DNA of 64,000 nt from Candidatus Hermodarchaeota archaeon (GCA_016839805.1 JAEOTO010000011.1:1-64000), one strand, 5' to 3'; positions 2,160 through 63,975 are shown, counted from the first letter of the stretch. A program made the numbers and translations. Notes: generated from the letters alone by a model not told the origin.

Positions 2160-2912
2160 TTAGACGAACATGCCGCCTGCACCGTGATCATTTTCACGTT
2201 CTTGCTGGCGCTCAAGAAGCTGCTTGATTTCTTTTTCTATAATTTCGGCATCGGCCATGAGTTCCCCGGTGCTGATTTCGAGGTCGAAAAGCTTATTGAA
2301 AACTTCAATGGCGACGCTGGCTGCACGTGGATCTGGGCGGCCTCGTTCGGCATAGGGTAGAATGGTAAGTGCTGGAAAGTTCCGAATCTCATAATTAGCA
2401 AGTAGCAGAGCCAATGGACCATAGATTCCTCGTCCTTCTCCTAGGACTGGCAATTCGAATTTTTGAGCGGTTTCACGGTAAGCGACGGTATACGCAGTTC
2501 GATAGCGCTCCTCACCTTCTGCGAATTGTATATCAAGGCCTCCCCAAAGAATTGCTTCTTTGAACTCCTCTTTTACAGACCATTCGGCAATGGCTTCGGT
2601 AAAGGGCGCCCATTCGGCGCGATGTGGTTGAAGTCGTGTAAACAAGAGGATGAAGCGGTTATCATACTCATAGAGCTCAATAGGCATTAGCAGGCGGTCG
2701 CCACCAATGAACACGTGGGGAGGAACAAGTGGACTCATGATACATCCTATAGAGCGGGTATTTTTTTGAGCGACGAGATGACGCAGTACAATGTAACCGG
2801 TTTCACCTAAAGCGCTATGAAACCCAGTAACAAGTACTTTACCTTTCAGCTTTACATCAGGATCTCGTAGAATTATTTGAATTTCATCTGCGTATTCCAT
2901 TGAATTCGCCAT
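2160..2912 (-). CDS. PAC2-family proteasome assembly chaperone
   Basis: VTGFH..GETGYI, GIYGPLALLL, PDPRAA motifs. Confidence 0.85.
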   Translation of the reverse strand: MANSMEYADEIQIILRDPDVKLKGKVLVTGFHSALGETGYIVLRHLVAQKNTRSIGCIMSPLVPPHVFIGGDRLLMPIELYEYDNRFILLFTRLQPHRAEWAPFTEAIAEWSVKEEFKEAILWGGLDIQFAEGEERYRTAYTVAYRETAQKFELPVLGEGRGIYGPLALLLANYEIRNFPALTILPYAERGRPDPRAASVAIEVFNKLFDLEISTGELMADAEIIEKEIKQLLERQQERENDHGAGGMFV

Positions 2913-2959
2913 TCTATCGTATTGGCTGTAGCTGAATGACACTGCGTTTTAAGTATTTT

Positions 2960-4358: not shown

Positions 4359-4502
4359 CGATTCTTCCCTGATAAGAGAAAAATCGCCATCTTTCTACAG
4401 GGTATTCCTTTGCTTCGAAATACATTTATGAGGTTAGGTCCGCAAATCGTGGTTATCAATCCGCTAATGCAGACATGAGTAACGTAGGAGAATCGTGAAA
4501 TT

Positions 4503-5762
4503 TTGACTGAACTCCATTTTCTGGGTGGCTGTAAAACCATCGGTAGTTCTGCATATCTCGTTAAAGAGGATAATACCTCAATCCTGCTGGATTTTGGGGC
4601 TTCCTTTAATGGTCACCCCACCTTTCCCCAAATGAGTAGACCTCCCAATCTCACAGTTGCCCTTAGCCATGCTCATCTCGACCACAGTGGTGGTCTTCCC
4701 CTCTTATTCGCAAGTAGCTCAGCACCGGTCTACATGACTGCCATTACACGTGATTTGATTCGGATTTTGCTTAAAGATATGTTGCGGTTAAGCAACTACT
4801 TCCTTCCCTATGAAAAACTTGAAGTAGATCGCCTATTCCGACGAATCAAAATTGTAGACTACAAAGAGCCAATTGAGGTTGGTCAGGATATCACCATAAC
4901 TCTTCATGATGCAGGACATATTCCTGGTAGCGCAGCAATCCAAGTTCAAACCCCAACGCATGATATTCTCTACACAGGTGATATTAACACAATTGACACT
5001 CAACTCTTGAAAGCTGCCCGGCATCCCACGTCATCGGACACATTAATCATGGAAAGTACCTACGCACTCACAGCGCATAAAAGTCGAAACGAAATCGAAG
5101 AGGAATTTATTGAAACCACTGAAACGATCATCGATAATGATGGAATAGTACTTGTACCAGCTTTTGCTGTCGCACGAGCACAGGAAATTCTTTGTATCCT
5201 TAAACGCTACAAAGTCTCTTATCCTATCTATATGGATGGAATGGCGCGAGAAGCGGCTCGAATCTTTCTCCGTCATCCTAAGTTCTTCCGAAATTACAGA
5301 CTGCTCAAGAGTGCTTTACGGAACACACAGTGGGTACAAAATCGTCGACAACGTGAACGAATCACCAAGAATCCCGGGCTAGTTGTCGCTCCTGCTGGAA
5401 TGTTACGGGGAGGAACAGCAGCCATGTATCTTAGTCAAATCATGCATAATCCCAAAAATGCTGTACTCTTAGTGGGTTATCAAATCCCTGGCACCCCTGG
5501 ACGGGATCTCCTCGAAAACGGCTCATTCGATGATGGAAGTGGACCCAAACGTGTAAAAGCGAAATTCGAACTCTTTGATTTCTCCTCCCATGCTGGGAAA
5601 AACCAGTTACTAGAACTAGGGCGCTCATTTTCGAATGCTACCGAAGTTTTTACCGTACACGGTGAAGCTGAAGCTTGTGAGTCTCTGGCCAAGGACTTGC
5701 ATAAACAGTATAGCATAAATGCCCGTGTTGCTGAGACAGGACAAAGGCTCGAACTATCATAA
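4503..5762 (+). CDS. MBL-fold beta-CASP ribonuclease (aCPSF2-like)
   Basis: SHAHLDH, AGHIPGS, YTGD, MESTY, PAFAVARAQE, FSSHAG, VHGE motifs. Confidence 0.9.
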   Translation: MTELHFLGGCKTIGSSAYLVKEDNTSILLDFGASFNGHPTFPQMSRPPNLTVALSHAHLDHSGGLPLLFASSSAPVYMTAITRDLIRILLKDMLRLSNYFLPYEKLEVDRLFRRIKIVDYKEPIEVGQDITITLHDAGHIPGSAAIQVQTPTHDILYTGDINTIDTQLLKAARHPTSSDTLIMESTYALTAHKSRNEIEEEFIETTETIIDNDGIVLVPAFAVARAQEILCILKRYKVSYPIYMDGMAREAARIFLRHPKFFRNYRLLKSALRNTQWVQNRRQRERITKNPGLVVAPAGMLRGGTAAMYLSQIMHNPKNAVLLVGYQIPGTPGRDLLENGSFDDGSGPKRVKAKFELFDFSSHAGKNQLLELGRSFSNATEVFTVHGEAEACESLAKDLHKQYSINARVAETGQRLELS

Positions 5763-5775
5763 AAATGGTGAAAAA

Positions 5776-6654
5776 ATGATGGCTGATGAATTACCTGTTA
5801 TATCCGGGGCTCGCAGTACCATTATCGCCAATCTCATCACGTCGATGATTGCAGCGGGGCTTTTAGGTATTATCGTTGCTTTGGCTGGTGTTCGATTTTA
5901 CGCTGAACCCATCCCTGAATCAGCTTTTGGTCCTTTAGCTGGGATTGCAAACGCCATCCTTTTTGTCGTGCTCGCAACAGTCGGTGCAACTATGGTAGTG
6001 CTCCTACTGAAATATGGAAAAGAACACATTCTCAAATACATCTTAATAATTGCATTTGGCTTCATCAGTATCGTTATTGTCATTTATTTTGGCTACATGT
6101 TCTTCCTTGTCTTCCAATTTGTCGATCCAATTCTTGCAGCCTTCATCATTATCGCCTTCATTATGACTGCTGGATTGGCATTCGTCATGGTAGATTCTGA
6201 AAATCGGATAAAGAATGGAGGGTTGTTGATATTTGGGGGTGCCGTGGGAGCCTTTTTGGGAGTAGTTCTGCCTGTATGGACGAGTGTGCTACTACTCGTC
6301 GGATTGGCCATTTACGATTATTTCTCAGTGAAAAGAGGTCCAATTCGCAAAATCGTGGAACTCACAGAAGATGATCCTGACAAACTTACAGCCCTCGCTG
6401 TGTCTACCTCTGAATGGGATATTGGCCTCGGAGATGTGGCATTTTATGGAATGATTACCGTTCTCGCCATTGTCAATTACGGCATGCTTACCGCGTTGTT
6501 AGCCGTCATCGGCGTTATCAGCGGATTTTTAATCACCCTAAAAATGCTTGAAAAACGAGGAGTAATGGCTGGGCTTCCCATCCCAATTGGACTGGGACTG
6601 CTAGGATTTGCCATTGGCATACTGGTAACTTTCTTCTTCCCATTTGTGCCCTAA
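5776..6654 (+). CDS. Presenilin-family GxGD intramembrane aspartyl protease
   Basis: About 9 TM helices, catalytic YD (LAIYDYFSV) and GLGD, PAL-like AGLP. Confidence 0.85.
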   Translation: MMADELPVISGARSTIIANLITSMIAAGLLGIIVALAGVRFYAEPIPESAFGPLAGIANAILFVVLATVGATMVVLLLKYGKEHILKYILIIAFGFISIVIVIYFGYMFFLVFQFVDPILAAFIIIAFIMTAGLAFVMVDSENRIKNGGLLIFGGAVGAFLGVVLPVWTSVLLLVGLAIYDYFSVKRGPIRKIVELTEDDPDKLTALAVSTSEWDIGLGDVAFYGMITVLAIVNYGMLTALLAVIGVISGFLITLKMLEKRGVMAGLPIPIGLGLLGFAIGILVTFFFPFVP

Positions 6655-6684
6655 TCATGTCAGACAAAAGAAAGGCTTGATTGC

Positions 6685-19239: not shown

Positions 19240-20555
19240 TTGGATGACACCACTTATCTCCACCTCCCCACCGCTTAAATCCCTCAATGACTTGAACCAC
19301 TTTAGTGTCATTTCCCAACTTAAGAGCAGGTGTATGGCTGTGCGACGAACCAACACAGTGGTCTTAGCGCCATCGGCGAAACAACACCAATACCTCCTGC
19401 AACTGGCGGAGAACTGCGCTCGACTGTGGAACGAGCTAAACTATCGGCGCCGCCAAACTTTCTTCAAAGGCAGGATCAACTGGGAGTGGCGCGACCTATA
19501 CGAGACCTACAAACGCACTATGGGGTCAGCGACCGCCCAACAGATTGAACGGAAAAATAGTGAGACCTGGCGGGCTTTCTTTGCCCTACTCCGATTGAAG
19601 CGGAAAAAACAGCTTCCACCCCACATCAATCGCGTTCGCCCACCAGGCTACTGGAAGGATCGACGAAGGAACATGCGGAAGTTGATTATCCTCCTCAGGT
19701 GCGACTCGTATAAGTTTAAAGATCACGTGTTGCGGATGCCGAAGAGATTCAGTATAAAATAGAAAGGCAGGCCTAAATGGAGTATCTGGATAAAACAGGG
19801 TAGGCTCACCATAAAATACGATGCGGTTACCTGCAAGTGGTATGCCCATCAACCTGTGGAGGTGCCTCCTCCTCATCAACCGCTCTCGAATCGGAGAGCC
19901 TATATTGATCTGGGCGTTATTAGCTTGTTGACGATCGCGGTGGATGGTGCACGCCAGACCTTATCCTATAGTGGGCGTCCCGCATTGGCCGACTGGTGGT
20001 ATCTCTCCCACCAGATAGACCGGTTAAAGGCGCTAGCGAAGACCATGAATAACCGGGAATCGACGAGAGGGGTGCGCCGTCTATACAGACAGCGACGACT
20101 TCGGGTCCACCAGTTTGTAAATACTACTGTTCGCAGGGCGATTGAAGCTCTGTGGGTGAGTGGTGTGTCTACGCTGGTTGTGGGAGACCTCACCGGGATT
20201 CTGGCAAATACAAGTTGGGGACGGAAAGCTAATGCAATGACGCATAACTTCTGGGGTCATCGGCATCTCATTCAACGCGTCAAGGAGGTTGGGGAGGAAT
20301 ACGGCATCGCAGTTGAACTGGTGAATGAACGGGGTACATCGAGTACGTGTCCACGGTGTGAAGGAGATCAAATAACTCGTCGAGGTCGTCTGTTCAAATG
20401 CCGTGGCTGTGGGTTAGAGGCGCACCGGGACACTGTGGGAGCTGTAAACATAAGCGTCGTCTTCGGAGGGCGCATTAACGGGGTGGTGGTGCACCCTGTG
20501 GAGGTTTGTATATGACGTCCACGAATCTCCCGATTTTAATCGCGGAGAGTGTCAA
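19240..20555 (+). mobile_element. Second tnpB-only IS200/IS605-family element (left end approximate)
   Basis: Right end GAATCTCCCGATTTTAATCGCGGAGAGTGTCAA (ends 20555); ATGACAC...GTGTCAT inverted repeat upstream of tnpB; higher GC than flanks. Confidence 0.7.
19334..20515 (+). pseudogene. tnpB: TnpB with a single in-frame TAG (19760-19762)
   Basis: The two ORFs share a frame; SIK*KGRPKW is best explained by TGG>TAG; RuvC YIDLG / VVGDL / HRDTVGAVNI and CPRC...CRGC present. Confidence 0.85.
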
Positions 20556-20668
20556 GCGCTAACAGTTCAATTGAACCCATAGATAACCGAAATTATATCT
20601 ACAATAAATAATGAAGAAGACTGCTCCTGCATTTAGACAGAAATGGTTGAATCTGATTTAAGTGAGAA

Positions 20669-50708: not shown

Positions 50709-51272
50709 ATGGAACGAACCGAAATTCGTCTAGGTGGTTTGGGCGGACAAGGCGTCATTAAATCCGCCGTCATCATAGGTGAAGCAGCATCGATTTACGA
50801 CGGAAAAGAAGCCGTACAAACCGCCTCCTATGGTCCCGAATCTCGGGGAAGCGCTTGTAAAGCCGAGGTTATTATCTCAAATACCCCCGTTGATTATCCT
50901 CTCGTTTTAGCACCACATGTACTAGTAGCTCTCTCCAACGATGCATACCAAAAATACAAAAGCGATCTCAGGAAGGGTGCCATCGCGATTATTGATTCAG
51001 ACTTAGTAAAAGCGGGAAAAATTAAGGCAGGTATACAAGTGTATCAGGTGCCTGCTGCTGCTACAGCTCACCAGGTCTTAGAAAATCCCCTAGTAACTAA
51101 TGTCGTGATGTTGGGTGCCTTCACCGCTATCACGAAAACCGTCACCCCTGATGCAATGCGCAAAGCCATTGCGAATGCATTTCCCAAATATCAGGAACTC
51201 AACCTCCGTGCTTTCGACGAAGGCATGAAACTCGGACAGGAAGCAATGGAGCAATCATCAAAAACGGAGTGA
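50709..51272 (+). CDS. korC: 2-oxoacid:ferredoxin oxidoreductase gamma subunit
   Basis: GLGGQGVI, SYGPESRG, NVVMLGA. Confidence 0.88.
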   Translation: MERTEIRLGGLGGQGVIKSAVIIGEAASIYDGKEAVQTASYGPESRGSACKAEVIISNTPVDYPLVLAPHVLVALSNDAYQKYKSDLRKGAIAIIDSDLVKAGKIKAGIQVYQVPAAATAHQVLENPLVTNVVMLGAFTAITKTVTPDAMRKAIANAFPKYQELNLRAFDEGMKLGQEAMEQSSKTE

Positions 51273-51280
51273 AAAATCTG

Positions 51281-53251
51281 ATGTCGACTGAAGAACCTAA
51301 AATTGGCGTCTTCATCTGCCACTGTGGCTCAAATATTGCTGGGGTTATCGATATACCTCAACTAGTTGAATACACAGCAACACTGCCCAATGTCGTTGTG
51401 GCCGAAGATTATCGCTATATGTGCTCCGACCCCGGACAGGACCTCATCCGAGAACGTGCCCGGGAAAAGGGGTTAAACCGTGTCGTCGTTGCGGCATGCA
51501 GCCCTACTCTCCACGAACCCACCTTTCGACGTGTCCTCGAAAGCATGGGGTTAAATCCTTTCTTCTTTGATATGTCCAATATTCGTGAACACTGCTCATG
51601 GGTTCACACCCACGAAGAAGAAGCTGCCCTCGAAAAGGCAAAAGATCTTGTTAGAATGGCTGTAGCCCGAGCGGCTGAACTTGAACCCCTCGTACAAAAG
51701 GAAGTTGATGTCAAAGCTAGTGTTCTCGTCGTGGGTGCTGGTATCGCTGGCATTCAAGCTGCCCTCGACATTGCTGATGCCGGTTACAAGGTCTACCTGG
51801 TCGAAAAAGAACCCAGCATCGGGGGGCACATGGCCCAACTCGATAAGACCTTTCCCACGCTTGACTGTTCCAGTTGTATCCTCACACCCAAAATGAGCCT
51901 AATCGGTCAACATCCCAACATCGAATTACTCACCTACAGTGAAGTCCGTGAAGTTGACGGTTTTGTTGGTAACTTCAAAGTAAAAGTCGAACGAAAACCC
52001 CGCTTCGTTATTGAAGATAAGTGCACTGCCTGTGCCGATTGTCTCGAAGTCTGTCCCGTAAACGTCCCGGATGAGTTCAATACGGGTCTTGGATGGAGAA
52101 AAGCCATTTACATCCCCTTCGCTCAAGCCGTTCCTAACGCATACATCATCGACACGGAACACTGTCTGGGCATGACTCCCATTGCCTGTGGAAAGTGCAA
52201 AGACTCCTGTGAAGCTGAAGCCATTGACTATGAAATGAAGCCTGAAATTCTAGAACTCGATATCGGTGCTATCATTGTCACCACCGGATTCAAACTCTTC
52301 AATGCCATGGAACAACTCGAATACGGCTATGGCAAATACCCTGATGTAATGACTAATCTCGAAATGGAACGAATGCTAAGTGCCGCAGGACCCACCGACG
52401 GTAAAATCATACGTCCCTCAAGCATGAAAAAGCCTAAAGACATCGCCTACATCCAATGTGTCGGCTCACGCAACGAACGCTACAACAATTACTGTTCCCG
52501 CGTCTGTTGTATGGCCGCTCTAAAACAAGCCCGACAAATCCGAGAAAAATACCCCGACATTAACGTCACCATCTTCTACATCGATATGCGAGCCTTCGGC
52601 AAGGGATATGAAGAATTCTATGAAAGCACCTCACGCGAATATGGCGTCACCTTCGTCCGAGGTCGAGTTGCAGAAGTTCGAGGATCCTTCGATTCCGACC
52701 GCATTGTTATCCGAGCAGAAGATACCCTCCTAGGACAGCCCGTAGAAGCCGAAGCCGATATCGTCGTTCTCTCATGTGGCATTCAAGCAGCCGAGAATCA
52801 AGGAGACCTCGCCCGGGTCCTCGGTATCCAACTCAGCGCCGATGGCTTCTTCCTCGAAGCCCACCCAAAACTACGCCCTGTTGAAACCAATACTGACGGT
52901 ATCTTCATTGCAGGAGCTGCCCAAGGACCGAAAGACATCCCCGACTCAGTAGCCCAAGCCAAAGGCGCCGCCGCAAGCGCTTTAACCATGGTGACCGCAG
53001 GTCGAGTCAAAGTTCAACCCTACGCTGCTGTCGTCAATGAAGAACTCTGCGCTGGATGCGGTATCTGTGAAGCTTCCTGCCCTTATGGCGCAGTCAAAGT
53101 AGTTGATAATGTCGCACAAGTAACTGAAGCCCAATGCAAGGGCTGCGGAACCTGCGCTGCCGCCTGTCCCAACGAGGCTATTGCACCCCAACACTTTACC
53201 ATGGATCAAATCATTGCCCAACTTGACGCGCTCTTTCAGGAGGCACGCTAA
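51281..53251 (+). CDS. hdrA: Heterodisulfide reductase subunit A (Cys form)
   Basis: [51 protein letters not shown]. Confidence 0.95.
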
Positions 53252-53253
53252 AG

Positions 53254-53682
53254 TTGACCAAGAAGAACTGGGAACCTAAAATCGTCTGTTTCGCCTGCCG
53301 TTGGTGTAGCTACGCAGGAGCTGACATGGCGGGGACCTCTCGTATCCAATATCCTCCCAATGCGCGTGTCATCCGAGTCAACTGTAGTGGTCGCGTTGAT
53401 CCGCAGTTTATTTTACGCGCGCTCAAACTCAAAGCCGATGGCGTGCTCATTGCTGGCTGCCATTTCGGTGATTGCCACTATGTCTCCGGGAACTACCAAA
53501 CCTCACGCCGCGTTGAACTTCTCAAAGAATACCTCAAAGAAATTGGCTTAGAGCCTGAACGATTACGCCTCGAATGGATTTCTGCGGCTGAAGGCACTAA
53601 ATTCGCCGAGACCATGAAGTCATTCGTAAATGAGATTAAGCTTTTAGGACCCAATCCGCTGGCTGACGGAGGACCCGAATAA
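53254..53682 (+). CDS. mvhD: MvhD [2Fe-2S] subunit
   Basis: [24 protein letters not shown]. Confidence 0.95.
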
Positions 53683-53683
53683 G

Positions 53684-54622
53684 ATGACAAAACCATCCCT
53701 CGCCGTCGAAACACTCAGCATCTGCTCTGGCTGTGAAATCGCCATCCTGGATCTACACCAGGCCCTCCCAGGGGTGCTGGATGCCATCGACCTCAAATAC
53801 ATCCAAGTCCTCATGGACTTCCGTGAACCCCCCAAAGAAGGCGTCACCGTCGGTTTTGTCTCCGGTGGAGTCCGCAACGAAGAACAAGTCGAACTCCTCC
53901 ACAAAATACGCGAACGCTCACAAATCCTTGTCGCCTTCGGAGCCTGCTCAGCCTTTGGTGGTATACCCGGGCTCGCCAACCTCCACACTAAGGACGAACT
54001 TCTGCAAGAAGTCTACATCGACACTGTAAGCACCGTCAACCCCAAAGGTGTAATTCCCCACAAAGTCGTTCCCCCCCTCCTTGAAGAAGTTCACCCCATC
54101 AGCGACTTTGTCAAAGTCGACTACGTTCTCCCGGGCTGCCCGCCGCCACCCAAACTCATCGCTGAACTCGTCACCTGCCTCCTCGAAGGCAAAGAATTCC
54201 GACTCGAGCCTAAAACCGTCTGCGACCAATGCCCCCTCACCAAGGACGAAAAAAGCGTCACCAACTTCATCCGCTGGGGCACCAAAAAAATCGACCCCGA
54301 ACGCTGCCTCCTCGAACAAGGCTTCCAATGCCTGGGTCCTGTCACTCAAGGTGGCTGCGAAGCCCGTTGCCCCACCGCCCTCGCGCCCTGCCGAGGCTGC
54401 TTCGGACCCACCGAAAGTGTCCACGACCAAGCCGCCAAAATGATAGGCGCCATCGGCTCCGTTGTCATCCAAGATCCCACCAAAGCCCCTGCCCCTGAAC
54501 AAATCGTGAAGGAAATCCCCGACCTTGTGGGTACCTACCTCCGCTTCAGTTTAGCGGCATCCACCTTCAAAAAAGCGCTTCACACAAACGTTGTCAAAAT
54601 GAAAAAGGGTGTAAAAGCATGA
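53684..54622 (+). CDS. mvhG: Group 3c [NiFe]-hydrogenase small subunit
   Basis: CSGCE, GAC..GG.PG, PGCPP, C.GP.T.GGC.A.CP....CRGCFG. Confidence 0.92.
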   Translation: MTKPSLAVETLSICSGCEIAILDLHQALPGVLDAIDLKYIQVLMDFREPPKEGVTVGFVSGGVRNEEQVELLHKIRERSQILVAFGACSAFGGIPGLANLHTKDELLQEVYIDTVSTVNPKGVIPHKVVPPLLEEVHPISDFVKVDYVLPGCPPPPKLIAELVTCLLEGKEFRLEPKTVCDQCPLTKDEKSVTNFIRWGTKKIDPERCLLEQGFQCLGPVTQGGCEARCPTALAPCRGCFGPTESVHDQAAKMIGAIGSVVIQDPTKAPAPEQIVKEIPDLVGTYLRFSLAASTFKKALHTNVVKMKKGVKA

Positions 54623-56040
54623 GTCAAAAAGGAAAAACCATCAAAATCGCTCCCGTCTCCCGCGTCGAAGGACACGGCGCCATCACCATTCAACTCGACC
54701 AACAAGGCAACGTCGCCGACGCCCACTTCCACGTCATGGACGTACGCGGCTTTGAAATGTTTATGCAAAACCGTCCCGTCGAAGAAGCCCAACGCATCGC
54801 CACTCGCATGTGTGGCATCTGCCCCGTCAGCCATCATCTTGCCTCTGCCCACGCAGCTGATGCACTTTACAGAGTAGATCCCCCACGAACCGCCAAAATG
54901 CTCCGCGAACTCATGCATATGGGGCAATTACTGCATTCACATGTTTTGCATTTTTGGTATTTAGCTGCACCAGATCTATTACTACCAGATACGGGGCCTG
55001 AGACACGGCATGTTGTGACATTATTGCAGAAACATCCCGATGTGGTCAAGAAGGTTATTCGTGCCCGTCAGGTCGGACAGAACATCATCGAAGCCACGGG
55101 AGGTCGTGCAATCCACCCAGTTACAGCTCAACCTGGTGGGATATCTAAGCCTCTCTCAGAAGAGGTACGGGACGACCTAATAGCACAAGTCGATGAAGCA
55201 CTTGCGATTACCCATGAATTGTTCCCCGTTGTGCGTCCAGTACTGGATAAGGTTGAATTATTAGATGAATTGAAGACGGGCTACCTTGGATTGGTCAACA
55301 AGGATGGCAATCTTGATCCATACCAAGGTCTTCTTCGCCTTGTTGACCATGATGACAAACGCCTGGAAGAATTTCCTGTCAAAGATTACCTCAAATATAT
55401 TGGAGAGCACGTCACCGATTATTCCTACCTGAAGTTCCCATTCTACTTACCACGGGGTTGGCCTAAAGGGATGTACCGGGTAGGTCCACTCGCTCGGATA
55501 AATGTGGCTGATTCTATTCATACTCCTGATGCACGGGAAGAATTTGAAAAACTACATGACCAATTCGGACGAACTACAAACCATACACATCTCTACCACT
55601 GGTCTCGGCTGATTGAGATTTTATATGCAATCGAACGTGCAAAGGAACTCCTTACCGACTCTGAAATCACCAGCGATAATGTCATGAAGGAAGTGGAAAT
55701 TCGAGGTGGAGTTGGTATTGGGGTCATTGAAGCTCCTCGTGGAACCCTTATCCACCATTACACAGCCAACTCCGATGGCATCCTGACTAAAGTCAACCTC
55801 ATCGTTTCAACAGTAGGAAATAATGGTGGTATGGATCGTGGAGTCAAAACTCTTGCTCAACGTTATATCAAAAAAGGAGTTATTAATCCAATTATTTTAT
55901 CAAACATTGAAACAGTTGTTAGAGCTTATGATCCGTGCTTATCATGTGCTGTTCATTCAATAAATGGTCAAATGGCAATGCAAATTGATGTGAAAAACCA
56001 TCTTGGCGAACGAGTTCAAGTGCTCCGAAATTTTGAGTGA
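54619..56040 (+). CDS. mvhA: Group 3c [NiFe]-hydrogenase large subunit with cleavable C-terminal extension
   Basis: RVEGH, RMCGIC...H (L1), EAPRG, RAYDPCLSCAVH (L2) plus 27-aa tail. Confidence 0.93.
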   Translation: MSQKGKTIKIAPVSRVEGHGAITIQLDQQGNVADAHFHVMDVRGFEMFMQNRPVEEAQRIATRMCGICPVSHHLASAHAADALYRVDPPRTAKMLRELMHMGQLLHSHVLHFWYLAAPDLLLPDTGPETRHVVTLLQKHPDVVKKVIRARQVGQNIIEATGGRAIHPVTAQPGGISKPLSEEVRDDLIAQVDEALAITHELFPVVRPVLDKVELLDELKTGYLGLVNKDGNLDPYQGLLRLVDHDDKRLEEFPVKDYLKYIGEHVTDYSYLKFPFYLPRGWPKGMYRVGPLARINVADSIHTPDAREEFEKLHDQFGRTTNHTHLYHWSRLIEILYAIERAKELLTDSEITSDNVMKEVEIRGGVGIGVIEAPRGTLIHHYTANSDGILTKVNLIVSTVGNNGGMDRGVKTLAQRYIKKGVINPIILSNIETVVRAYDPCLSCAVHSINGQMAMQIDVKNHLGERVQVLRNFE

Positions 56041-56100
56041 ATGGGAATTTAACTAAATTCACCAGCTATTCGTTGTAAGCTAATGATCTTCTTTCTCTTT

Positions 56101-57219
56101 TCACCTATTTTCATTTGACTTCCACCATTTTCTCTCGGATTCCTCTATGAATCCTTCTCGCTTAAGTCTTTCAAACATAGAATCGGCTTTTTCTTCTTGA
56201 GTATTAAGCCAGTTTCTAACTGCAACACGCTTGCGTCCAGAGGACGGTGGAGCTAGGATAGACCAGCGTAGAATATCATCTTGACCATTGACAACAGTCA
56301 CCCATGATGTAGAAACTCGACCATTTTTGAAGACACGAATCAGTTCAGAATAACAGGACCGATTGATTCCTAAACTTTCTAGCAGACTTCCTTCATCATC
56401 TATAAGCTTACATCGGTTACCTTCAATTAATTCAACTAATTGAGCTGCGATTATTCTGTCATGGATATTGGCAGCTTTATTTACCAATTCTTGAAGCTCT
56501 CTCATCCGTAATCTGGTTCTCTCAATTTCCTCAGAGTTGATTTTCTGTGAGGTTTCTTCGCCATACCTCAAAATGAAGTCTTTCTGTTGCTGCGAAATCT
56601 TTGGTTCAAAATTATATTCTTTGTTTTTTGAACCGGCATCAAGGACCACTATTCTCCGCCAAGCAAAGGAAAGTGTTTTCTCGGTATGAATAAACGATCC
56701 CTCTTCAGGAATCAATTCTTCAATATAGGCCCTTTTTACCCGTATTGACCCATTCCAAATGCTTGAAGGAAGCTCAAAGGATTGTAGGTGTTTTGCTCCT
56801 TTCCTCACTCCCCAATTCTCTAGTTGTCGACCGAGTACTGTCGTTGAATTTAGTTTGTAAACATTTCCTCGAGATTTAAGGTTCACATGTGCATCACCAA
56901 ATGTTTCTTTCAAGAGGTTCACAACATATTCTACTCGATCTTTTTCTTTCTCAGCGTACTCTGGTGTTGCTGATTTTCGATTCACATGTCCATCACTGAG
57001 GTAGATGGCGAGGAGGCGTGCTCGGAGTTCGTCTCGTTTTTCTCCCTCGGGGAATTGGGGGTTGTGGATTCCGTATCGTGGGTTTCTGCCGATGTGTTGG
57101 ATTTGTGGTTGTATGTCAGTGAATGTGGTGTTTGTTGCGTCGAGGAGGAAGTGTAGGCTTTCGCCGAGGATGTAGTGTCGGTGGGTTCCGTGGCTTATAC
57201 TGTGTTTGCACAAAGCCAC
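56101..57219 (-). CDS. Free-standing LAGLIDADG-like protein, probably 5'-truncated
   Basis: LLAIYLSDGHV and AYIEELIPEEGSF about 95 aa apart; no intein motifs; no convincing start. Confidence 0.5.
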   Translation of the reverse strand: MALCKHSISHGTHRHYILGESLHFLLDATNTTFTDIQPQIQHIGRNPRYGIHNPQFPEGEKRDELRARLLAIYLSDGHVNRKSATPEYAEKEKDRVEYVVNLLKETFGDAHVNLKSRGNVYKLNSTTVLGRQLENWGVRKGAKHLQSFELPSSIWNGSIRVKRAYIEELIPEEGSFIHTEKTLSFAWRRIVVLDAGSKNKEYNFEPKISQQQKDFILRYGEETSQKINSEEIERTRLRMRELQELVNKAANIHDRIIAAQLVELIEGNRCKLIDDEGSLLESLGINRSCYSELIRVFKNGRVSTSWVTVVNGQDDILRWSILAPPSSGRKRVAVRNWLNTQEEKADSMFERLKREGFIEESERKWWKSNENR

Positions 57220-57534
57220 GGATTTACTAGTGCCAAAATCGTAGAAGGTGTTCTAAATCCAACCATTTTAAATGATACTGGTAACCTTTTCTTTATCTAC
57301 TCGATTTTAACCTTTATTGGTGAAAATGGTACCCAAGTTATTGAATGGAAGATTGAAATCCCCATCAATGTTGGACAAAGCGACATCGATGTAATATCAA
57401 CAAGAAATGTCACTGTAAGTGTAGTTCATCTTAATGGTGGATATCTCTATGTTGTTACAATTTATGTCTCAATAATCCTGGTTTTTTTCATTCTTTGTGT
57501 TACATGTGTACTAAAACGCAGACAAAGAGTCTAA
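57212..57534 (+). pseudogene. 3' fragment of a membrane-anchored surface protein
   Basis: N-x-T sequons, C-terminal TM helix and KRRQR tail; no start or signal peptide. Confidence 0.5.
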
Positions 57535-57548
57535 TGAATTGATGTAAG

Positions 57549-57611
57549 GCGATATTGGTTGCGGTGTTAAATTATTTGGGTCGGACAAAACAGGTGATTC
57601 AGCACTTTGAT
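57549..57611 (+). repeat. mvhA 3'-end copy 1 (degenerate, partial)
   Basis: Translates AILVAVLNYLGRTKQVIQHFD, versus AMRIEVLNHLGETTQVLQNFE in copy 3. Confidence 0.65.
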
Positions 57612-57637
57612 GCCTGGCTGTATTCGGTCTGATTGTT

Positions 57638-58276
57638 TTAGCCAATTAGTTCCTTTACTTTCTTGAAGATATCCTGAGCTAATATTGCTTTGCCACAATG
57701 GGCGCAGTAAATTTGGTTTCCTGTTTCGGGAAGTTCGACATTGGCACCGCATTCTGGGCATTTGACTACCTGTAGCATCAAGCCTCCTTCTTTCATGTAA
57801 TTTTTTAGAAAGGAGAAGTCAAGATGAACGTGGACGCGTTCTTTTTGGCGTTCGGCTTGAAGGGCTTGTTTTCTAGCGTCTGCCCATTCGAAGATGTGTC
57901 GCCGAAATTTATCGAAATAAGTGCCACTGACTCCACTTAAGTGGAATACTTTCTCACCGGTTGGGTCACCGATTGATACGTATTTTCTTACCATACCACC
58001 CATGGAGATTCCGGTAATTTCCTCTAAGGGTGTTTCAAAAATCGTATGGTAAGACTTGCTAAGTCTTCCTCTGCTTTCTAACCAGATTAATCGTTGAGAG
58101 GTAAGGACTAAGGCACCTTTCTTTTTTTCCTTTACATCTTTCGGTACATCTTTTTTGAAAATCCTGCCTTTCTTTTCAAAGATCGTATGGGTCGCTTCAC
58201 AATTTCCTTTCCAATGGTGTATTATTTTCTCTCCTTCTCGAAGAAATATGGTATCTTCCTATGGCAAAACCACCAT
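57638..58276 (-). pseudogene. PH/GRAM-like domain plus zinc-ribbon protein, disrupted
   Basis: Frame extends upstream of the listed ORF (KGALVLTSQRLIW...PLEEI); early TAG and frameshift near 58220-58260; CPECG...CAHCG. Confidence 0.6.
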
Positions 58277-58464
58277 CTCCGACAGTAATTGCAAAACGCA
58301 ATTAGCGTATTTAATATTGTTCCAACAGTACTGAAGCAGAAATTAGTTTTTGGGTTTTTCCTTTACTCTTCATAGCAATGAGAATATTGCAAAAACTACA
58401 ATTAGTAATTAGGAAGGGGTGTTATTCAGTTAAGGTCTAAATCTCAATTATGTTATTACACAGT

Positions 58465-58503
58465 CTCTCTTGTGCGGTGCATGCGGTGAATGGGCAGATG
58501 GCG
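58465..58503 (+). repeat. mvhA 3'-end copy 2 (truncated)
   Basis: LSCAVHAVNGQMA; 39 nt identical to 61154-61192. Confidence 0.88.
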
Positions 58504-58522
58504 TTAAAAGGTCAGACCAGGA

Positions 58523-58708
58523 TTATTCTTCGTGTTTTGGTTTTTTAGAAGTGTTTTCGGTGTGAGGTGGCTCATCATCAGGTGGAATTAAGCCTAATCG
58601 TTTTTTCCGCTCTTCTGGACTGAGCTTTGAAATACTTGTTTCACCAGGTTTCCATTTCCCTTTTTTTCTTTTTACTTCAGCTTTTATATTCTCTAACTCT
58701 TCATTCAT
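58523..58708 (-). CDS. Stand-alone C1A propeptide-like protein (candidate protease inhibitor)
   Basis: WKPGETSISKLSPEERKKRLGLIP aligns ungapped with WRPGSTQIARKPLAVRKRMLGLKP of the neighbouring protease. Confidence 0.65.
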   Translation of the reverse strand: MNEELENIKAEVKRKKGKWKPGETSISKLSPEERKKRLGLIPPDDEPPHTENTSKKPKHEE

Positions 58709-58842
58709 TATTAATAACCATCGGGCTGATGGTCATGTTGAATAGTTGATGCCCTTTAAACTTATCTTTCCTTTTTTTTGGTTAAAGATTTATATATTGT
58801 ATAGACTATAATTACATCATAGCACCAATTGGAGGGAATTGA

Positions 58843-60198
58843 ATGGTTGAAAGTACTGAATTTAAGAAACTCATAACTGAATATCGAAAAAGGCCTGCTA
58901 GATGGAGGCCAGGATCAACACAAATCGCAAGAAAGCCTCTCGCTGTTCGAAAAAGAATGCTTGGTTTGAAACCAACTCGAAGCTTATTAAGACGGATAAA
59001 GGCGGCAAAACTAGACCAACCTGTCCGGCGAGTGAGAAGACTCGGGACGGGACTTGCTGTTTCTACAAGTTACCCAAATGCATGGGATTGGCGAAATGTT
59101 GATGGGAAAGATTGGACTACCCCAATACGAAACCAGGGAGGATGCGGCTCATGTGTAGCCTTTGGAACGCTCGCAGCTTTCGAGGCTCGACAGAAAATTC
59201 AAGTGTTCCGATACCCCACCGCCTCTCCAAACCTCTCTGAAGCTCATCTATTTTTCTGCGGGTGTGGAAACTGCTGTGGTACAGGTTGGTTCTTCACTGA
59301 TGCCCTAGAGTATCTGAAAAAGTATGGAGTTCCACCCGAAGACTGCTTCCCATATGTGGACTCAGATACGCCATGTTCCGATACTTGTGATGATTGGGAG
59401 GATCGAGTCGGATATAACAAAATCAAAAGTTGGGACCATACCATGGACACAGATGAGATGAAAGAATGGATAGCAAGTGATGGGCCACTTGTGGGAGGAA
59501 TGGCAGTATACACCGATTTCTTCTACTACACTGGTGGTATTTACGAATACGTATCGGGGTCTCTTGAAGGATATCATGCCATCGCAGTTGTCGGCTATGA
59601 CGATGATCAAGAATGCTGGATTTGCAAAAATAGTTGGGGCACCGGATGGGGTGAAAATGGCTGGTTCCGAATCGGTTACGGGGAATCAGGAATTGATTCC
59701 GTCTATGGAATGTACAGTATGGATCCTATGGATCCATGTGAAGGTGAAGAATCTCTTAAACTGCTTGGATATCAAGAGGTGTTCTCTACCTTACGGGAAT
59801 TCCGTGGAAGATACTTATTACGAACGGAGTCTGGCAGAGAATACATAAATGCAGTTCGAAGAAATCCAGGACCATTATGGAGAGTTTATTCTTTACTCGC
59901 TTTTGATAAAGATCTACGCAAAAAAACAATGACTGCTTTAGCACCGTTTATTCAAAGCGTTCAGACTATGCATGATCCAAAACCCAAAGTACTAAGCAAA
60001 GCGGATTTCAGTAGAGCAGAAAAAGTGATTGATGCAATAATTAATCGAGAACCCCGAATTCGCAAAGAATTAACACAAGTGAAACAAGAAATGCGTAAAT
60101 ATCAGGGTAAAGATGCTAAACAAATCGTTAGAATGCTTAGACGGGAATCATTTCGTCCGCCACCTCGACCTGTTCCACGTCGATTGGATGATGAATAG
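58843..60198 (+). CDS. Papain-family (C1A) cysteine peptidase with CFI-box-CTERM-like C-terminus
   Basis: WDWRN, NQGGCGSCVAF, GYHAIAVVGY, KNSWG; LREFR...L..ESGREY. Confidence 0.9.
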   Translation: MVESTEFKKLITEYRKRPARWRPGSTQIARKPLAVRKRMLGLKPTRSLLRRIKAAKLDQPVRRVRRLGTGLAVSTSYPNAWDWRNVDGKDWTTPIRNQGGCGSCVAFGTLAAFEARQKIQVFRYPTASPNLSEAHLFFCGCGNCCGTGWFFTDALEYLKKYGVPPEDCFPYVDSDTPCSDTCDDWEDRVGYNKIKSWDHTMDTDEMKEWIASDGPLVGGMAVYTDFFYYTGGIYEYVSGSLEGYHAIAVVGYDDDQECWICKNSWGTGWGENGWFRIGYGESGIDSVYGMYSMDPMDPCEGEESLKLLGYQEVFSTLREFRGRYLLRTESGREYINAVRRNPGPLWRVYSLLAFDKDLRKKTMTALAPFIQSVQTMHDPKPKVLSKADFSRAEKVIDAIINREPRIRKELTQVKQEMRKYQGKDAKQIVRMLRRESFRPPPRPVPRRLDDE

Positions 60199-60479
60199 GT
60201 TTAGACGTATTATGTAGTAGTTTCCATTGACATTGTACAAGTATCCACTATGGTCAGCTCCTGACATGAGGTCAAACAAAACGCAAAAAGCGCATAGTGG
60301 AGGTCTTCAACCTCCTCTTTAGATGATATGCTATTCTTCGATGATTTAACCCAATTGCTCACATCTTTGCAATCCCTTGGTTCATCAGCTAATATTCTCT
60401 ATAGCACCAATCATAGTCACAGTATTCATTAAGTAGTACGCTTACAGTTGGAGATAACAGCATATCGCTTTCTTGGGTT

Positions 60480-60851
60480 TCATGATTTTAGATCACGAAA
60501 CATTTTGAAGGGATTAAACCCGATTTCAGCCATGACTGCAGATTTGGAATCCTTATCTAGCCACTTGAGAAGAGTTTCAAAGGCGGTGTTTTCCTCTTTC
60601 GCTGCATCATTCCGTTGGCCAATGATAAATGCAAGGACTGCTCCACTGGCGACTCCAGCAATTAAGTTCAAGATTGCTGTGGCTAAATCAAGTGCAGAAA
60701 ATGCAAGTACTAATGCAGCGGTAATAAAAACCGTCATGATGATTGCTATGATGAATATTAACGCCGTCCATAGATACTTCCAGAGAAAAGCGGTGTGATA
60801 TCTTTTTGCTATAACTTCAAAGATTTGCGATGGTGGTATGTCTTGACTCAT
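60480..60851 (-). CDS. Small 2-TM membrane protein
   Basis: Two hydrophobic helices. Confidence 0.6.
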   Translation of the reverse strand: MSQDIPPSQIFEVIAKRYHTAFLWKYLWTALIFIIAIIMTVFITAALVLAFSALDLATAILNLIAGVASGAVLAFIIGQRNDAAKEENTAFETLLKWLDKDSKSAVMAEIGFNPFKMFRDLKS

Positions 60852-61150
60852 TTTCCTTTCACCATTATTTTGGAGCCTATGACTCAAACCCTCACTCAAT
60901 CCATCTGTGATTATCATATTTATAATACGCCCCTTAGCAGATTTCAGCTACTAGAGTATTGTGTGGTAGTAGGATTTCCTAGTTCATTGGGCTGGGTCTT
61001 AGTGTTAGGGGACGTTGAGTGCGAGTTTAGCAAAAAAGAACAAGTTGAGAATGGGTCCAATGGTTATGACTAGAACCAGGAACACCTTTTTTGGTGTTGT
61101 CAGGTTCTCGAGTGGCATCGTGTCAACTAGCGAATTAATAACTAAAAACT

Positions 61151-61258
61151 TGCCTCTCTTGTGCGGTGCATGCGGTGAATGGGCAGATGGCGATGCGGAT
61201 TGAGGTTCTGAATCATTTGGGTGAGACGACGCAGGTGCTTCAGAATTTCGAAGATTAA
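61151..61258 (+). repeat. mvhA 3'-end copy 3 (intact frame to stop)
   Basis: CLSCAVHAVNGQMAMRIEVLNHLGETTQVLQNFED* versus native CLSCAVHSINGQMAMQIDVKNHLGERVQVLRNFE* (55936-56040). Confidence 0.93.
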
Positions 61259-61427
61259 GTGGTTCTTCTAGTTAAAATTAATCTGGTCCATTCATATCGT
61301 TGTAGTTTTGAATTCAGTTTTTGTATTTTTTGTGTAGGACGGTATCCATGAATATTTATGCGTGACCCTCCTGTGTTTTTTTGACATCACGGTGATTGTG
61401 GTGATCATATTATTTGGGTAAAGAAAA

Positions 61428-61769
61428 ATGTCGAATGAAACTGCCAGAACATTAGCACTGGCTGGAGGCATATTGAATTTGATTGGTGGGCTCGTCATTA
61501 CGAGCATCACCTCCTTGTTATACTTCTTCCTTCTCTGGACGGGGCTTGAACCCTCTAGTTTGAACCACACCCTGTTCTTATTCTTCCTTATGATTGGGAT
61601 ATTTGCGACGCTTCTCGGGATTTTACCAATTATATGGCGCAATGATCCCGAGAATCACCAAACGGGCTTAGTCATCATCGGTGCCATTACCATCCTCTCA
61701 ATTGGCGGTATACTCAATCTCGCAGCTGGTATTATCGCAACAAACGAAGAAGCGGTCAAAACCTCATAG
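61428..61769 (+). CDS. Small 3-TM membrane protein
   Basis: Hydrophobic helices with repeated GGILNL motif. Confidence 0.65.
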   Translation: MSNETARTLALAGGILNLIGGLVITSITSLLYFFLLWTGLEPSSLNHTLFLFFLMIGIFATLLGILPIIWRNDPENHQTGLVIIGAITILSIGGILNLAAGIIATNEEAVKTS

Positions 61770-61850
61770 ATAGTTCGAGTAAAAGCGTTTTTCCGTTTCT
61801 TTCTTCCCTCTTTTTTTTACTCACAGTTTTTTCATATGCTCCCAGATAAG

Positions 61851-61954
61851 CTTCTTACGCGGTGCATCCCGTTAATGACAAATGGCGATGCGGGTTGAGT
61901 TGTTGAATCATCTGGGGGGAAACAACCTAAATCATTCAGAACTTTCAGGATTAA
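61851..61954 (+). repeat. mvhA 3'-end copy 4 (indels and internal stop)
   Basis: SYAVHPVN.QMAMRVELLNHLG.ETT*IIQNFQD*. Confidence 0.85.
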
Positions 61955-62178
61955 CTTCTTACGTACTGGCTTGTGTTGAGAGCCAGTCTTCTACCTTCTT
62001 TCGTTTGGGGTTAGATGATGGCATTGTACCTCTTACTCTTTTTGAGAGAGGTTTTTTCATATTGCTGAAACTCGTCCTGATCGGTTTCTTCTTTCCTTCG
62101 GGCGTCGACGCTAAGGATATCCTTCTTTGTTGCGGCTCGAATGACTTTTTTTGTTTCTCACTGAATATACCCACCATA

Positions 62179-63459
62179 CTACAAGTGGTTATTTTCCATC
62201 ATTATGGACTCGATGGACTGGGTGTTTTTTTTGTGTTGGGATTGGGGGATTGAAAACCGAAGCGTCCGTTGTTGATTAAGCTCGTTAACAAAAACCTCAG
62301 AGGCTCTACCAACAAATTCGAGGGACTGAGGGGCGATGTTATCAATTCGATCATGTGGTGTGTGATTGAGGAGGAAATTCACTCCTCCACCAAACCACCA
62401 GTGCACTGCTGGAATACCATAATACGCAAAGATGCGGTTATCTCCTCCGGTAGGCGCTAGTCGCATTTCTGGGTTCCATTGATGAATCGCTTGATTGACT
62501 CGGGTGAGCAGCCGTTTTTCTCCAATTACACCTAGGGCTAAATTACCAATTCGGGCCCCTTGTACGTCAAAATTCAGATTCAGTTTAATCTCATCTAATG
62601 AAGTTGAATGCGTTTGGCAATAATGCCGCGCTCCTTGTAAGGCGCACTCCTCGCTTCCACAAGCCACGAAGCGTAAGGTCCATCGAGGGGTCGAAGCCGC
62701 GAAGACTCTCGCTAGTTCCAGTAAAATCGCGGTGCCAGCAGCATTATCCGCGGCTCCAGGGGAGTACGGAGCAGAATCATAGTGGGCGGAAAAAAGGATG
62801 ACATCTGGTTCTAGTCCTGGAATTTCACCAATCACATTGAAACTTTCTGACTGGAGAATTGTTACATCCGCTAGGATAGTTAGTTCTCTCGCATTGGCTA
62901 ACAACTTCGCTCCATCTTGATAACTAACAGAGATTATCGGTGGTAAAAGGTCGAAATCGCCCGTGTTTAATGCACTATAGATAAAACCCATAGGAAGTTT
63001 GGGTGGAATCCCTGGATGATATGTGACATAGATAATTCCTTGAACACCTGCTTGGATGAGATCCTGCACGACTTGTTGCGAGAAATCCCGAGTATATAAT
63101 ATAACGATTTTGTCAGAAAAACGGCTTAGATTATCGGGAGTGGGATTCCAACTCCATGAAGTGTACTTCACAACTGGACCTGATACGCCCTCACTCTCAG
63201 TGGAACCAGATAGTCCAAAGCTTAACCCCTCAAATGTACGAGTTCCGGCGATAATTTGGGCCTTTTTTTGACGACTTGTAAGGACAGGAAACGCTTCGGC
63301 ATGAACGTTTTCAAGACCATATTGCGATAACTGGGTACAGAGATAGTCCTTCGTGGTTACCGTACTCTCCAGTCCCTGCACCCGTACACCAATAGATTGC
63401 GCTAAATGACGACAAACCTCAAATGCAGTGTCACCTGAAAACTTCTGCGTCTCTTTCAT
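62179..63459 (-). CDS. M28 metallopeptidase with PA domain
   Basis: SAHYDS, GAADNAAG, GSEE, NFD, HT..D. Confidence 0.88.
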   Translation of the reverse strand: MKETQKFSGDTAFEVCRHLAQSIGVRVQGLESTVTTKDYLCTQLSQYGLENVHAEAFPVLTSRQKKAQIIAGTRTFEGLSFGLSGSTESEGVSGPVVKYTSWSWNPTPDNLSRFSDKIVILYTRDFSQQVVQDLIQAGVQGIIYVTYHPGIPPKLPMGFIYSALNTGDFDLLPPIISVSYQDGAKLLANARELTILADVTILQSESFNVIGEIPGLEPDVILFSAHYDSAPYSPGAADNAAGTAILLELARVFAASTPRWTLRFVACGSEECALQGARHYCQTHSTSLDEIKLNLNFDVQGARIGNLALGVIGEKRLLTRVNQAIHQWNPEMRLAPTGGDNRIFAYYGIPAVHWWFGGGVNFLLNHTPHDRIDNIAPQSLEFVGRASEVFVNELNQQRTLRFSIPQSQHKKNTQSIESIMMENNHL

Positions 63460-63621
63460 GTCAAAAGAATAGGTCAACCCATTAAAAAAAGAGCTCACGA
63501 GAATGGTAACTTACCACGCAACGAAAACAGCTTTTAATGTCCAAGAAGCTAGTATAAATGGGGATCTGTTTTCTCAATAAGAAGTTGTTAATTATTTAAT
63601 GAAATTTCGTTGAATTTTAAG

Positions 63622-63726
63622 CTTTCTTGTGTGGTGCATGCGGTGAATGGGCATATGGCGTTGTGTGTTGAAGTTCAGAATCATCTTGGTGAGACGACGC
63701 AGGTTATCCAGAACTTCGAAGATTAA
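63622..63726 (+). repeat. mvhA 3'-end copy 5 (open to stop)
   Basis: LSCVVHAVNGHMALCVEVQNHLGETTQVIQNFED*. Confidence 0.92.
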
Positions 63727-63735
63727 TAGATTCGG

Positions 63736-63975
63736 TTACGTGGGTTTGCTTGCTATCACGCGCCAATTGACAAAGTTGTCGATAATGCGCCAAACACCGT
63801 GCACTACAATGAAAGTGAGTAATCCGAGTAATGGATAAACGATGTTTGTTCCCCATATGTCTATTTCGTTATTTACGAAATATTGGAGAATGCCAATCGC
63901 TACAAGGAATTGGCTGATGGCAATGATGATTTGAAAGATAAACCTGATGCTTGATCCAGTCCTTTCTCGCATCAT
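63736..63975 (-). CDS. Small 2-TM membrane protein
   Basis: Two hydrophobic helices; GGGAGGTGA RBS upstream. Confidence 0.6.
   Translation of the reverse strand: MMRERTGSSIRFIFQIIIAISQFLVAIGILQYFVNNEIDIWGTNIVYPLLGLLTFIVVHGVWRIIDNFVNWRVIASKPT

Follow-up and report, generated by a model that had tools for sequence, protein, structure and literature searches.

Displaced hydrogenase gene ends in tandem behind mvhA of a Hermodarchaeota archaeon: the probable footprint of homing by a LAGLIDADG element

In a stretch of 64,000 nucleotides (nt) from Candidatus Hermodarchaeota archaeon (GCA_016839805.1, JAEOTO010000011.1:1-64000; the whole stretch is hereafter the window), the hydrogenase gene mvhA is followed by a tandem array of displaced copies of its own 3' end, separated by short intervals that mostly hold unrelated genes. 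The first of these intervals carries the gene of a LAGLIDADG homing endonuclease, and a unit consisting of host gene, in-gene tail, convergent LAGLIDADG gene and old tail is present at three unrelated host genes. The array is probably the footprint of repeated homing by a 3'-end-replacing LAGLIDADG element of the type represented by the WHO elements and mORFs of fungi, with later decay of the endonuclease genes and gain of cargo.

The mvhA tail and its displaced copies

The body of mvhA (54619-55938, +; Pfam NiFeSe_Hases, E 1.7e-36) runs through the Cys codon of the DPC motif, and the junction with the in-gene tail lies after codon 440. This tail, which reads LSCAVHSINGQMAMQIDVKNHLGERVQVLRNFE followed by the stop codon, occupies 55939-56040 (+; nhmmer match 55931-56049) and supplies the second Cys of the DPCxxC nickel-binding motif, the subsequent His and the C-terminal extension. 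During maturation of [NiFe] hydrogenases the C-terminal extension is cleaved off by a maturation protease.

Copies of the tail were searched for over the whole 2.31-Mb assembly (genome G000, a metagenome-assembled genome (MAG) of which the window represents contig C46) using nhmmer and a profile of 121 nt derived from four of them. On its own contig, mvhA is followed by six displaced copies of its last ~35 codons in the same orientation, five of them within the window; these five had been reported by an earlier note on this DNA and were recovered at near-identical coordinates by repeat finding, translation, alignment and nhmmer, with matches far beyond chance. The first displaced tail, c1 (57535-57614, +; nhmmer E 3.7e-5 over model positions 32-111, also detected by tblastn), is decayed and has lost its 5' third (AILVAVLNYLGRTKQVIQHFD), and c2 (58463-58505, +; E 1e-8) consists of just the 5' 43 nt of the tail. 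An open frame and stop codon are kept by c3 (61146-61265, +; E 3.9e-33), the translation of which is CLSCAVHAVNGQMAMRIEVLNHLGETTQVLQNFED up to the stop, and by c5 (63615-63733, +; E 3.5e-31); c4 (61848-61960, +; E 2.7e-27) is frameshifted in translation. The sixth copy, c6, is located beyond the window at 64038-64133 of the contig (E 1e-17).

The boundaries of the tails were determined from an alignment of 61 copies from 25 loci placed in profile register. The 5' limit of the well-preserved displaced copies (about 25, from more than 10 genomes) is situated at or just after the TGY Cys codon of DPC/LSC (the slash marks the junction), with unrelated sequence upstream, and at the 3' side similarity ends at most about 10 nt past the stop codon. 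Displaced copies begin no further than one codon from the DPC/LSC junction and end at the stop codon. Entropy at the first, second and third codon positions is 0.77, 0.48 and 1.08 in displaced tails and 0.49, 0.28 and 1.20 in in-gene tails, the third position being the most variable in each class; the pattern of the displaced tails looks like a relaxed form of the in-gene coding pattern, as expected of once-functional gene ends. The idea that displaced tails are more conserved than in-gene tails was rejected, as mean pairwise identity is 0.69 in both classes.

The in-gene tail of the window is 62% identical at the nucleotide level to the displaced-tail consensus, the lowest value among nine in-gene tails, and is recoded at the Leu, Ser, Ala and Val codons following the junction. 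It is probably a recoded, element-borne end that now serves the gene; the two other in-gene tails linked to an element are not outliers (78-79%). Its G+C content at third codon positions (GC3) is 0.235, and within mvhA a GC3 change-point from 0.41 to 0.18 was located near codon 395, 45 codons ahead of the junction, a shift reached by 8 of 2000 shuffles, which would fit a donor tract extending slightly upstream of the cut.

The endonuclease gene and its relics

The gene in the first array interval (56101-57219, -) is free-standing, encodes a protein of 372 amino acids (aa) with two LAGLIDADG motifs, and is convergent with mvhA, ending 60 nt past the mvhA stop codon. The protein matches Pfam PF14528 (LAGLIDADG_3) with a score of 26 bits (E 1.2e-5), above the curated cut-off of 22.5, and contains two LAGLIDADG-type helices that end in catalytic acids (...LSD76G... 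and ...IPEE172G...), with D76, E172 and G174 invariant in an alignment of 17 paralogues. A structure predicted with AlphaFold2 (predicted local distance difference test score (pLDDT) 89.6, predicted template modelling score (pTM) 0.86) displays the pseudo-dimeric alpha-beta-beta-alpha-beta-beta-alpha fold. The top 50 Foldseek matches of this model are mostly I-Tsp061I, PI-SceI/VDE, the TliVMA intein endonuclease, I-DmoI and I-SceI (prob 0.99-1.0), and the best matches in the PDB (I-Tsp061I, PI-SceI and I-DmoI, at prob 1.0) are all LAGLIDADG homing endonucleases. Motifs and predicted fold together identify the open reading frame (ORF) as a LAGLIDADG homing endonuclease gene, that is, a nuclease gene of the mobility type in cis. 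The earlier note overlooked it when stating that no integrase or transposase is present in the window; its wording that a recombinase "or nuclease" might act was right in spirit.

Homologues with ~40% identity occupy the same place in the same orientation behind the in-gene mvhA tail in genome G008 and in G016, a member of the sister genus. The family is multi-copy, being found in 9 of 14 and 4 of 4 genomes of the two genera with up to 8 copies each, and most members (loci L033-L050) are 650-850 aa long and carry a Pro/Thr-rich N-terminal extension of ~300 aa for which no Pfam family was found. More distant relatives (29-37% identity) occur in Thorarchaeota, beside which a simple neighbour-and-tail pipeline detected no displaced tails; these may use another layout.

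Remains of further endonuclease genes were searched for with a C-terminal sub-profile of the family in the 450 nt downstream of each tail on the convergent strand, while the same strand downstream and both strands upstream (183 regions) served as controls. Matches at E<0.05 were obtained in 7 of 61 regions, corresponding to three intact genes and four relics, versus none of the 183 controls, of which the best reached E 0.82. One relic, at locus L032 of G003 (E 2e-8), follows a tail that cannot be assigned as in-gene or displaced because the contig begins inside it; the others are found behind the in-gene tail of G001 (E 7e-7), in G012 (E 0.03), and in the window itself, where a LAGLIDADG C-terminus (61962-62198, -; E 1.3e-3) containing ...MPSSNPKRKKVEDWLSTQ... 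abuts c4 in convergent orientation. Endonuclease genes or relics stand behind 4 of 9 in-gene tails (three intact genes and one relic, the other five having neither) versus three of the remaining 52 tails (p 0.007, Fisher test), an enrichment that fits an order in which the newest unit is nearest to the gene. The mvhA alleles of G005 and G006 are without the endonuclease, and an mvhA body joined to a tail of the c3 type is found naturally in relatives such as G012. The 3' end of a peptidase M28 gene (62179-) overlaps the relic adjoining c4, and cargo can therefore replace a decaying endonuclease gene as one route of entry. Large LAGLIDADG pseudogenes in the cargo intervals were also looked for by comparing a full-length profile with six-frame translations; intact genes only were found, and the idea was dropped.

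The same unit at other host genes

On contig C3 of this genome (1-6676, locus L050) a group-4-type [NiFe] hydrogenase large subunit gene (hyd4; 5471-6676, -; Complex1_49kDa and NiFeSe_Hases) is arranged stop to stop with a paralogous LAGLIDADG ORF of 692 aa (3392-5470, +). Beyond the latter lie four displaced copies of the group-4 hydrogenase tail (3327-3256, 2637-2551, 1131-1048 and 613-491), which begin around the DPC/FSC motif of that hydrogenase and are separated by msrB (2729-3154) and other small genes. The combination of group-4 hydrogenase and endonuclease with one to four displaced tails was found in four genomes (G000, G003, G012 and G014), the stop-to-stop arrangement is syntenic in five, and the hyd4-linked endonucleases form a host-specific clade (support 100/99). 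In G016 a gene for an FAD-linked oxidase is followed by a convergent LAGLIDADG paralogue and then by a displaced oxidase tail (E 4e-15). No displaced tails were found in the available sequence for the MTHFR, DUF4268, DUF6602 and ferredoxin-EtfA-like host genes.

As a separate observation, a C-terminal LAGLIDADG fragment of 135 aa (2143-2550, +) on contig C10 abuts the stop codon of the ferredoxin-EtfA-like gene (2551-3741, -).

Arrays in related genomes and recombination between tails

A profile of the tail peptide identified one to eight copies in 13 of 14 congeners and in one member of the sister genus; elsewhere it matched solely the in-gene tail of one distant mvhA gene. An array lies directly behind the in-gene tail on five contigs of relatives (G012:C52, G006:C25, G005:C367, G001:C8 and G008:C37). 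The mvhA orthologues of relatives are 69-79% identical to the gene of the window, and in at least eight of these genomes (G001, G004, G005, G008, G010, G011, G012 and G015) the orthologue is cut by a contig end at residues ~270-436, while separate contigs of relatives begin inside the mvhA 3' end; short-read assemblies are systematically broken at the array or junction region. Findings that the earlier note had named as contrary to its account, such as an unrepeated gene order in relatives or scattered 5' boundaries, were not made: relatives carry the same arrays with different cargo, and the boundaries are sharp.

The two sides of the junction have discordant histories. Identity over the 135 nt before versus the 96 nt after it is 0.85 versus 0.68 for G006 and G001, and 0.59 versus 0.82 for G012 and G008, and pairs of mvhA bodies and tails deviate in both directions by ~3-4 standard errors in a rough calculation, which amounts to moderate evidence because the segments are short.

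Recombination also takes place within the arrays. Positions 58252-58503 of the window align at 94% identity with L015:1-252 of G013, in which the tail runs on and an M28 gene comes next; relative to G013, the blocks 58252-58503 and 63644-64983 are both ~94% identical, and the intervening M28 gene is 71% identical. The breakpoints of this homology fall inside c2 (~model position 50) and inside c5 (~32; about 63644), and the tails are therefore also recombination sites at which intervals are shuffled. The tails within the contig differ from one another by about 8-40% and each has unique flanks. However, 39 nt are identical between c2 and c3 (58465-58503 and 61154-61192), against differences of 8-30% in the other copies, which points to a recent event of gene conversion or duplication involving these two displaced tails.

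Two more tails are present on contig C33 of this genome (18304-18215 and 17275-17188, minus strand; E ~1e-8), with no mvhA nearby. The intervals of this array (an epimerase and a 248-aa membrane protein) are shared with arrays behind mvhA in G005 and G001. It is probably a translocated, rearranged or fused piece of an array. An MFS transporter gene upstream of the C33 tails (427 aa, 19330-20613, -) ends in QQIQNFED and the stop codon, and its last 8 codons (25 nt) are possibly the relic of a tail end.

Cargo intervals and neighbouring genes

Intervals between tails are uniformly short (0.3-2.6 kb). For 66 array ORFs a Pfam scan was carried out, of which the 25 best families out of 56 matched are considered here; the cargo of relatives includes radical-SAM enzymes, small GTPases, epimerases and methyltransferases. 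Among cargo ORFs of at least 100 aa at 21 loci, 53 are convergent with the tails versus 24 co-oriented (binomial p 0.001), an excess for which two causes are conceivable, namely that read-through from the hydrogenase operon is avoided or that genes took the place of the convergent endonuclease gene.

In the window, an ORF of 119 aa without a Pfam family (57175-57534, +) is located between the endonuclease gene and c1, and c1 is followed by a 121-aa zinc-ribbon protein (57638-58003, -; sub-threshold zinc-ribbon Pfam matches). The interval between c2 and c3 contains a C1 papain-family peptidase (58843-60198, +; Pfam Peptidase_C1, E 1.7e-42) and a SLATT-like protein with two transmembrane segments (60480-60917, -; weak match to SLATT_fungal). 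A membrane protein of 113 aa (61428-61769, +), which has paralogues at other sites of this genome, lies between c3 and c4, the M28 peptidase (62179-63498, -; Pfam Peptidase_M28, E 1.4e-33) between c4 and c5, and a 79-aa membrane protein (63736-63975, -) behind c5; beyond c6, two membrane-protein genes extend up to the contig end at 64983. The C1A protease and the M28 peptidase had been correctly recognised as cargo in the earlier note. The M28 gene also occurs in the arrays of G013 and G004, at just 71-72% identity.

A further ORF of 61 aa, orf61 (58523-58708, -), directly after c2 is similar to an N-terminal part of the neighbouring C1 peptidase, which is encoded on the other strand (58858-58974, +; 33% over 39 aa, E 3e-5). 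From this similarity, orf61 seems to have arisen at the edge of the cargo block by a small, partial duplication in inverted orientation.

Upstream of the array, mvhA (54619-56040, +) is the last gene of an hdrA-mvhD-mvhG-mvhA cluster. Within this cluster the Pfam scan covered mvhA alone, and the ORFs assigned as hdrA (51269-53251, +), mvhD (53254-53682, +) and mvhG (53684-54622, +) were identified from translation and gene order.

Proposed mechanism and alternative explanations

The mobile unit would comprise a substitute end for mvhA, which runs from the Leu codon of DPC/LSC to the stop, together with the convergent LAGLIDADG gene just behind it. The endonuclease would cut element-free mvhA alleles where they encode the C-terminal nickel-binding motif, and the break would be repaired from an element-bearing copy, homology being provided on the left by the mvhA body and on the right by an old tail past the endonuclease gene. 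The recipient would thereby acquire a new, presumably cut-resistant tail and the endonuclease gene, while its former tail would be pushed downstream. Repeated rounds would stack old tails with the newest nearest to the gene; the endonuclease genes would then decay, other genes would fill the intervals, and recombination between tails would shuffle the intervals among strains. What was observed comprises the layout of the arrays, the enzyme family and its presence at three host genes, the relics and the discordant histories; cleavage at the junction, its allele specificity, the route of repair and the entry of cargo are inferred.

Several observations weigh against this account. Homing by itself leaves the arrival of cargo unexplained: about 50 of 61 intervals are without a trace of an endonuclease and hold intact, conserved, unrelated genes, and neither WHO clusters nor mORFs show intervals filled in this way. 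In 5 of 9 genomes the interval behind the in-gene tail lacks an endonuclease, and on C33 a tail array exists without an adjoining mvhA. Decay is not ordered by distance, as the nearest copy, c1, is the most decayed and the distal c3 and c5 retain open frames; in conjunction with the c2/c3 identity, this indicates that the stack has been reshuffled or homogenised and is not simply ordered by age. The endonuclease of the window lacks the N-terminal extension of ~300 aa that is typical of its paralogues, and its two mvhA-associated relatives are only ~40% identical and sit on long branches in the tree, so that present activity of the enzyme is uncertain. Finally, all of the genomes are fragmented MAGs.

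A further step, which is put forward tentatively, is that the arrays act as an integron-like platform for gene capture and exchange that is run on homing and homologous recombination, with distal tails such as c3 and c5 forming a library of spare gene ends. In that case genes lying between the in-gene tail and an old tail would be copied along at each homing event and old tails would act as portable homology arms, while well-kept open frames of the c3 and c5 kind could, much as silent mating-type cassettes do, serve to repair a cut mvhA so that it becomes resistant.

Among the alternatives, it appears unlikely that the LAGLIDADG protein is just a neighbour, either dead or domesticated, and that the arrays arose through ordinary recombination on the tails (unequal crossing-over, gene conversion and inter-strain DNA exchange) after a first duplication of some other origin. 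Recombination mediated by tails does occur, as is evident from the breakpoints inside tails and the contrast of 94% and 71% identity in neighbouring blocks shared with G013, and the 39 nt common to c2 and c3 point the same way. LAGLIDADG folds can be domesticated, WhiA being among the fold matches, and the hyd4-linked paralogue, syntenic in five genomes, could be merely inherited. However, both catalytic acids are invariant in 17 paralogues, and recombination by itself does not explain the sharp 5' limit at a conserved motif in two hydrogenase genes, the repeated unit of tail, LAGLIDADG gene and old tail at three host genes, or relics positioned exactly behind tails.

A little less probable again is an integron-like system, as favoured by the earlier note, in which a recombinase encoded elsewhere moves circular cassettes of tail and cargo at a crossover in mvhA, with the tail as an attC-like site. 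The sharp common 5' boundary, the gene-sized cargo without mobility genes in most intervals, the presence of the same cassettes in different array contexts across species and the existence of two tyrosine recombinases (PF00589) in the genome would all be compatible with such a system. However, a recombinase, which the note had suggested seeking beyond the window, was not found on the array contigs C46, C33 and C3, which are free of PF00589 and other recombinase matches, the two PF00589 matches being located only on C28 and C24, and no integrase is among the 25 best Pfam families of the 56 matched by the array ORFs. The tails fold no better than shuffled sequences (z -1.55 to +2.12 in 10 folds on both strands), which is not the behaviour of attC sites. 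An inverted repeat in the tail (TGAATCA … TGATTCA) was considered as a hairpin and dropped, as folding revealed no excess stability and common codons for LNH and VIQ can produce it. Three unrelated host genes carry arrays of their own tails, always with a LAGLIDADG paralogue, and a single att-specific recombinase would not explain arrays of this kind at other host genes. The breakpoints between species lie at differing positions inside tails, as homologous recombination gives and a single crossover site does not, and cargo is oriented both ways in place of the co-oriented cassettes of integrons. Of the interpretation given in the earlier note, the displacement of former mvhA ends by repeated insertion at the DPC/LSC codons stands, and a trans-acting, integron-like recombinase that moves non-autonomous cassettes does not.

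Islands are known to integrate at the 3' ends of tRNA genes and of some protein genes with restoration of the gene, and tandem arrays of them are established. If larger islands with an integrase had accumulated in tandem at the 3' end of mvhA and later shrunk to small remnants by deletion, this general precedent would apply; such an origin is nevertheless very improbable here, since neither an integrase nor a remnant of one is among the 25 best Pfam families for ~60 intervals from more than 13 genomes, intervals are short throughout, and the minimal units consist of exactly a tail and a LAGLIDADG gene. An assembly artefact, in which strain variants downstream of mvhA were chained through the common tail, could draw on the contig ends inside mvhA and on the MAG origin of all genomes and is the least credible of the explanations, because same-contig copies that differ and have unique flanks are not collapsed or chained identical repeats, and because 13 of 14 congeners, each assembled independently, carry arrays, which are also seen at two other host genes.

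If the homing account is correct, homing in the style of WHO elements and mORFs, by replacement of a gene end and not through an intron or intein, would extend beyond yeasts and fungal mitochondria to the chromosomes of Asgard archaea; in a literature search of incomplete coverage no archaeal counterpart of these elements was found. It would be directed at core genes of energy metabolism, at the codons for the nickel-binding and maturation site of [NiFe] hydrogenases. The frequent position of hydrogenase genes at contig ends in these MAGs would be explained, as would the chimeric evolution of hydrogenase C-terminal extensions and the gathering of strain-variable small genes behind them. The process would represent a recombinase-free route to integron-like cassette arrays, and the enzymes would form a family of meganucleases of probably programmable specificity, the natural targets of which could be read from the genome.

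Comparison with known systems

A close published parallel is provided by the WHO elements (Coughlan et al., 2020, eLife 9:e55336, PMC7282813), which in the yeasts Torulaspora and Lachancea are found at FBA1, the gene for aldolase; in architecture, the arrays agree with the WHO model point for point. In both systems a gene for a LAGLIDADG-type endonuclease with a PI-SceI-like fold lies just downstream of a conserved host gene, homing exchanges (here putatively) the 3' end of the host from the cut site onwards, and old ends form tandem clusters with the newest nearest (PMC7282813). In the WHO model one homology arm is supplied by the gene fragment that lies behind the endonuclease, as would be the case here, and in yeasts, too, the host gene is chimeric with discordant 5' and 3' histories and endonuclease relics are present (PMC7282813). 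The archaeal arrays differ in being carried by an archaeal chromosome without meiosis, in an endonuclease gene that is convergent with its host, and in a replaced piece of just ~34 codons. Neither an intein-like Hint domain nor a zinc finger was detected in the enzymes described here, which often have a low-complexity N-terminal extension of ~300 aa. Most intervals consist of unrelated intact genes, in contrast to the endonuclease genes and pseudogenes of WHO clusters, and the family serves several host genes per genome.

Gene hybrids are also formed by the mORFs of fungal mitochondria, at atp6 of Allomyces macrogynus and at atp6, atp9, cox2 and nad3 of Glomus (Beaudet et al., 2013, PMC3630166). 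There, a LAGLIDADG or GIY-YIG ORF near the 3' end of the host brings in a foreign C-terminus and the native one is displaced downstream; the two ends diverge chiefly in DNA sequence, and several host genes are affected per genome (PMC3630166). Unlike the archaeal endonuclease genes, mORFs are usually co-oriented with the host and often in frame, and they give rise to single duplications in an organelle genome and not to arrays, without cargo (PMC3630166).

With integrons the arrays have in common gene-sized units bounded by same-orientation repeats of ~100 nt beside a fixed site, and small cargo genes of unrelated function that mostly look promoterless. They differ in lacking an IntI-type recombinase on the array contigs, in a repeat that is a hairpin-free, coding gene end, in the mixed orientation of the cargo and in the presence of a nuclease.

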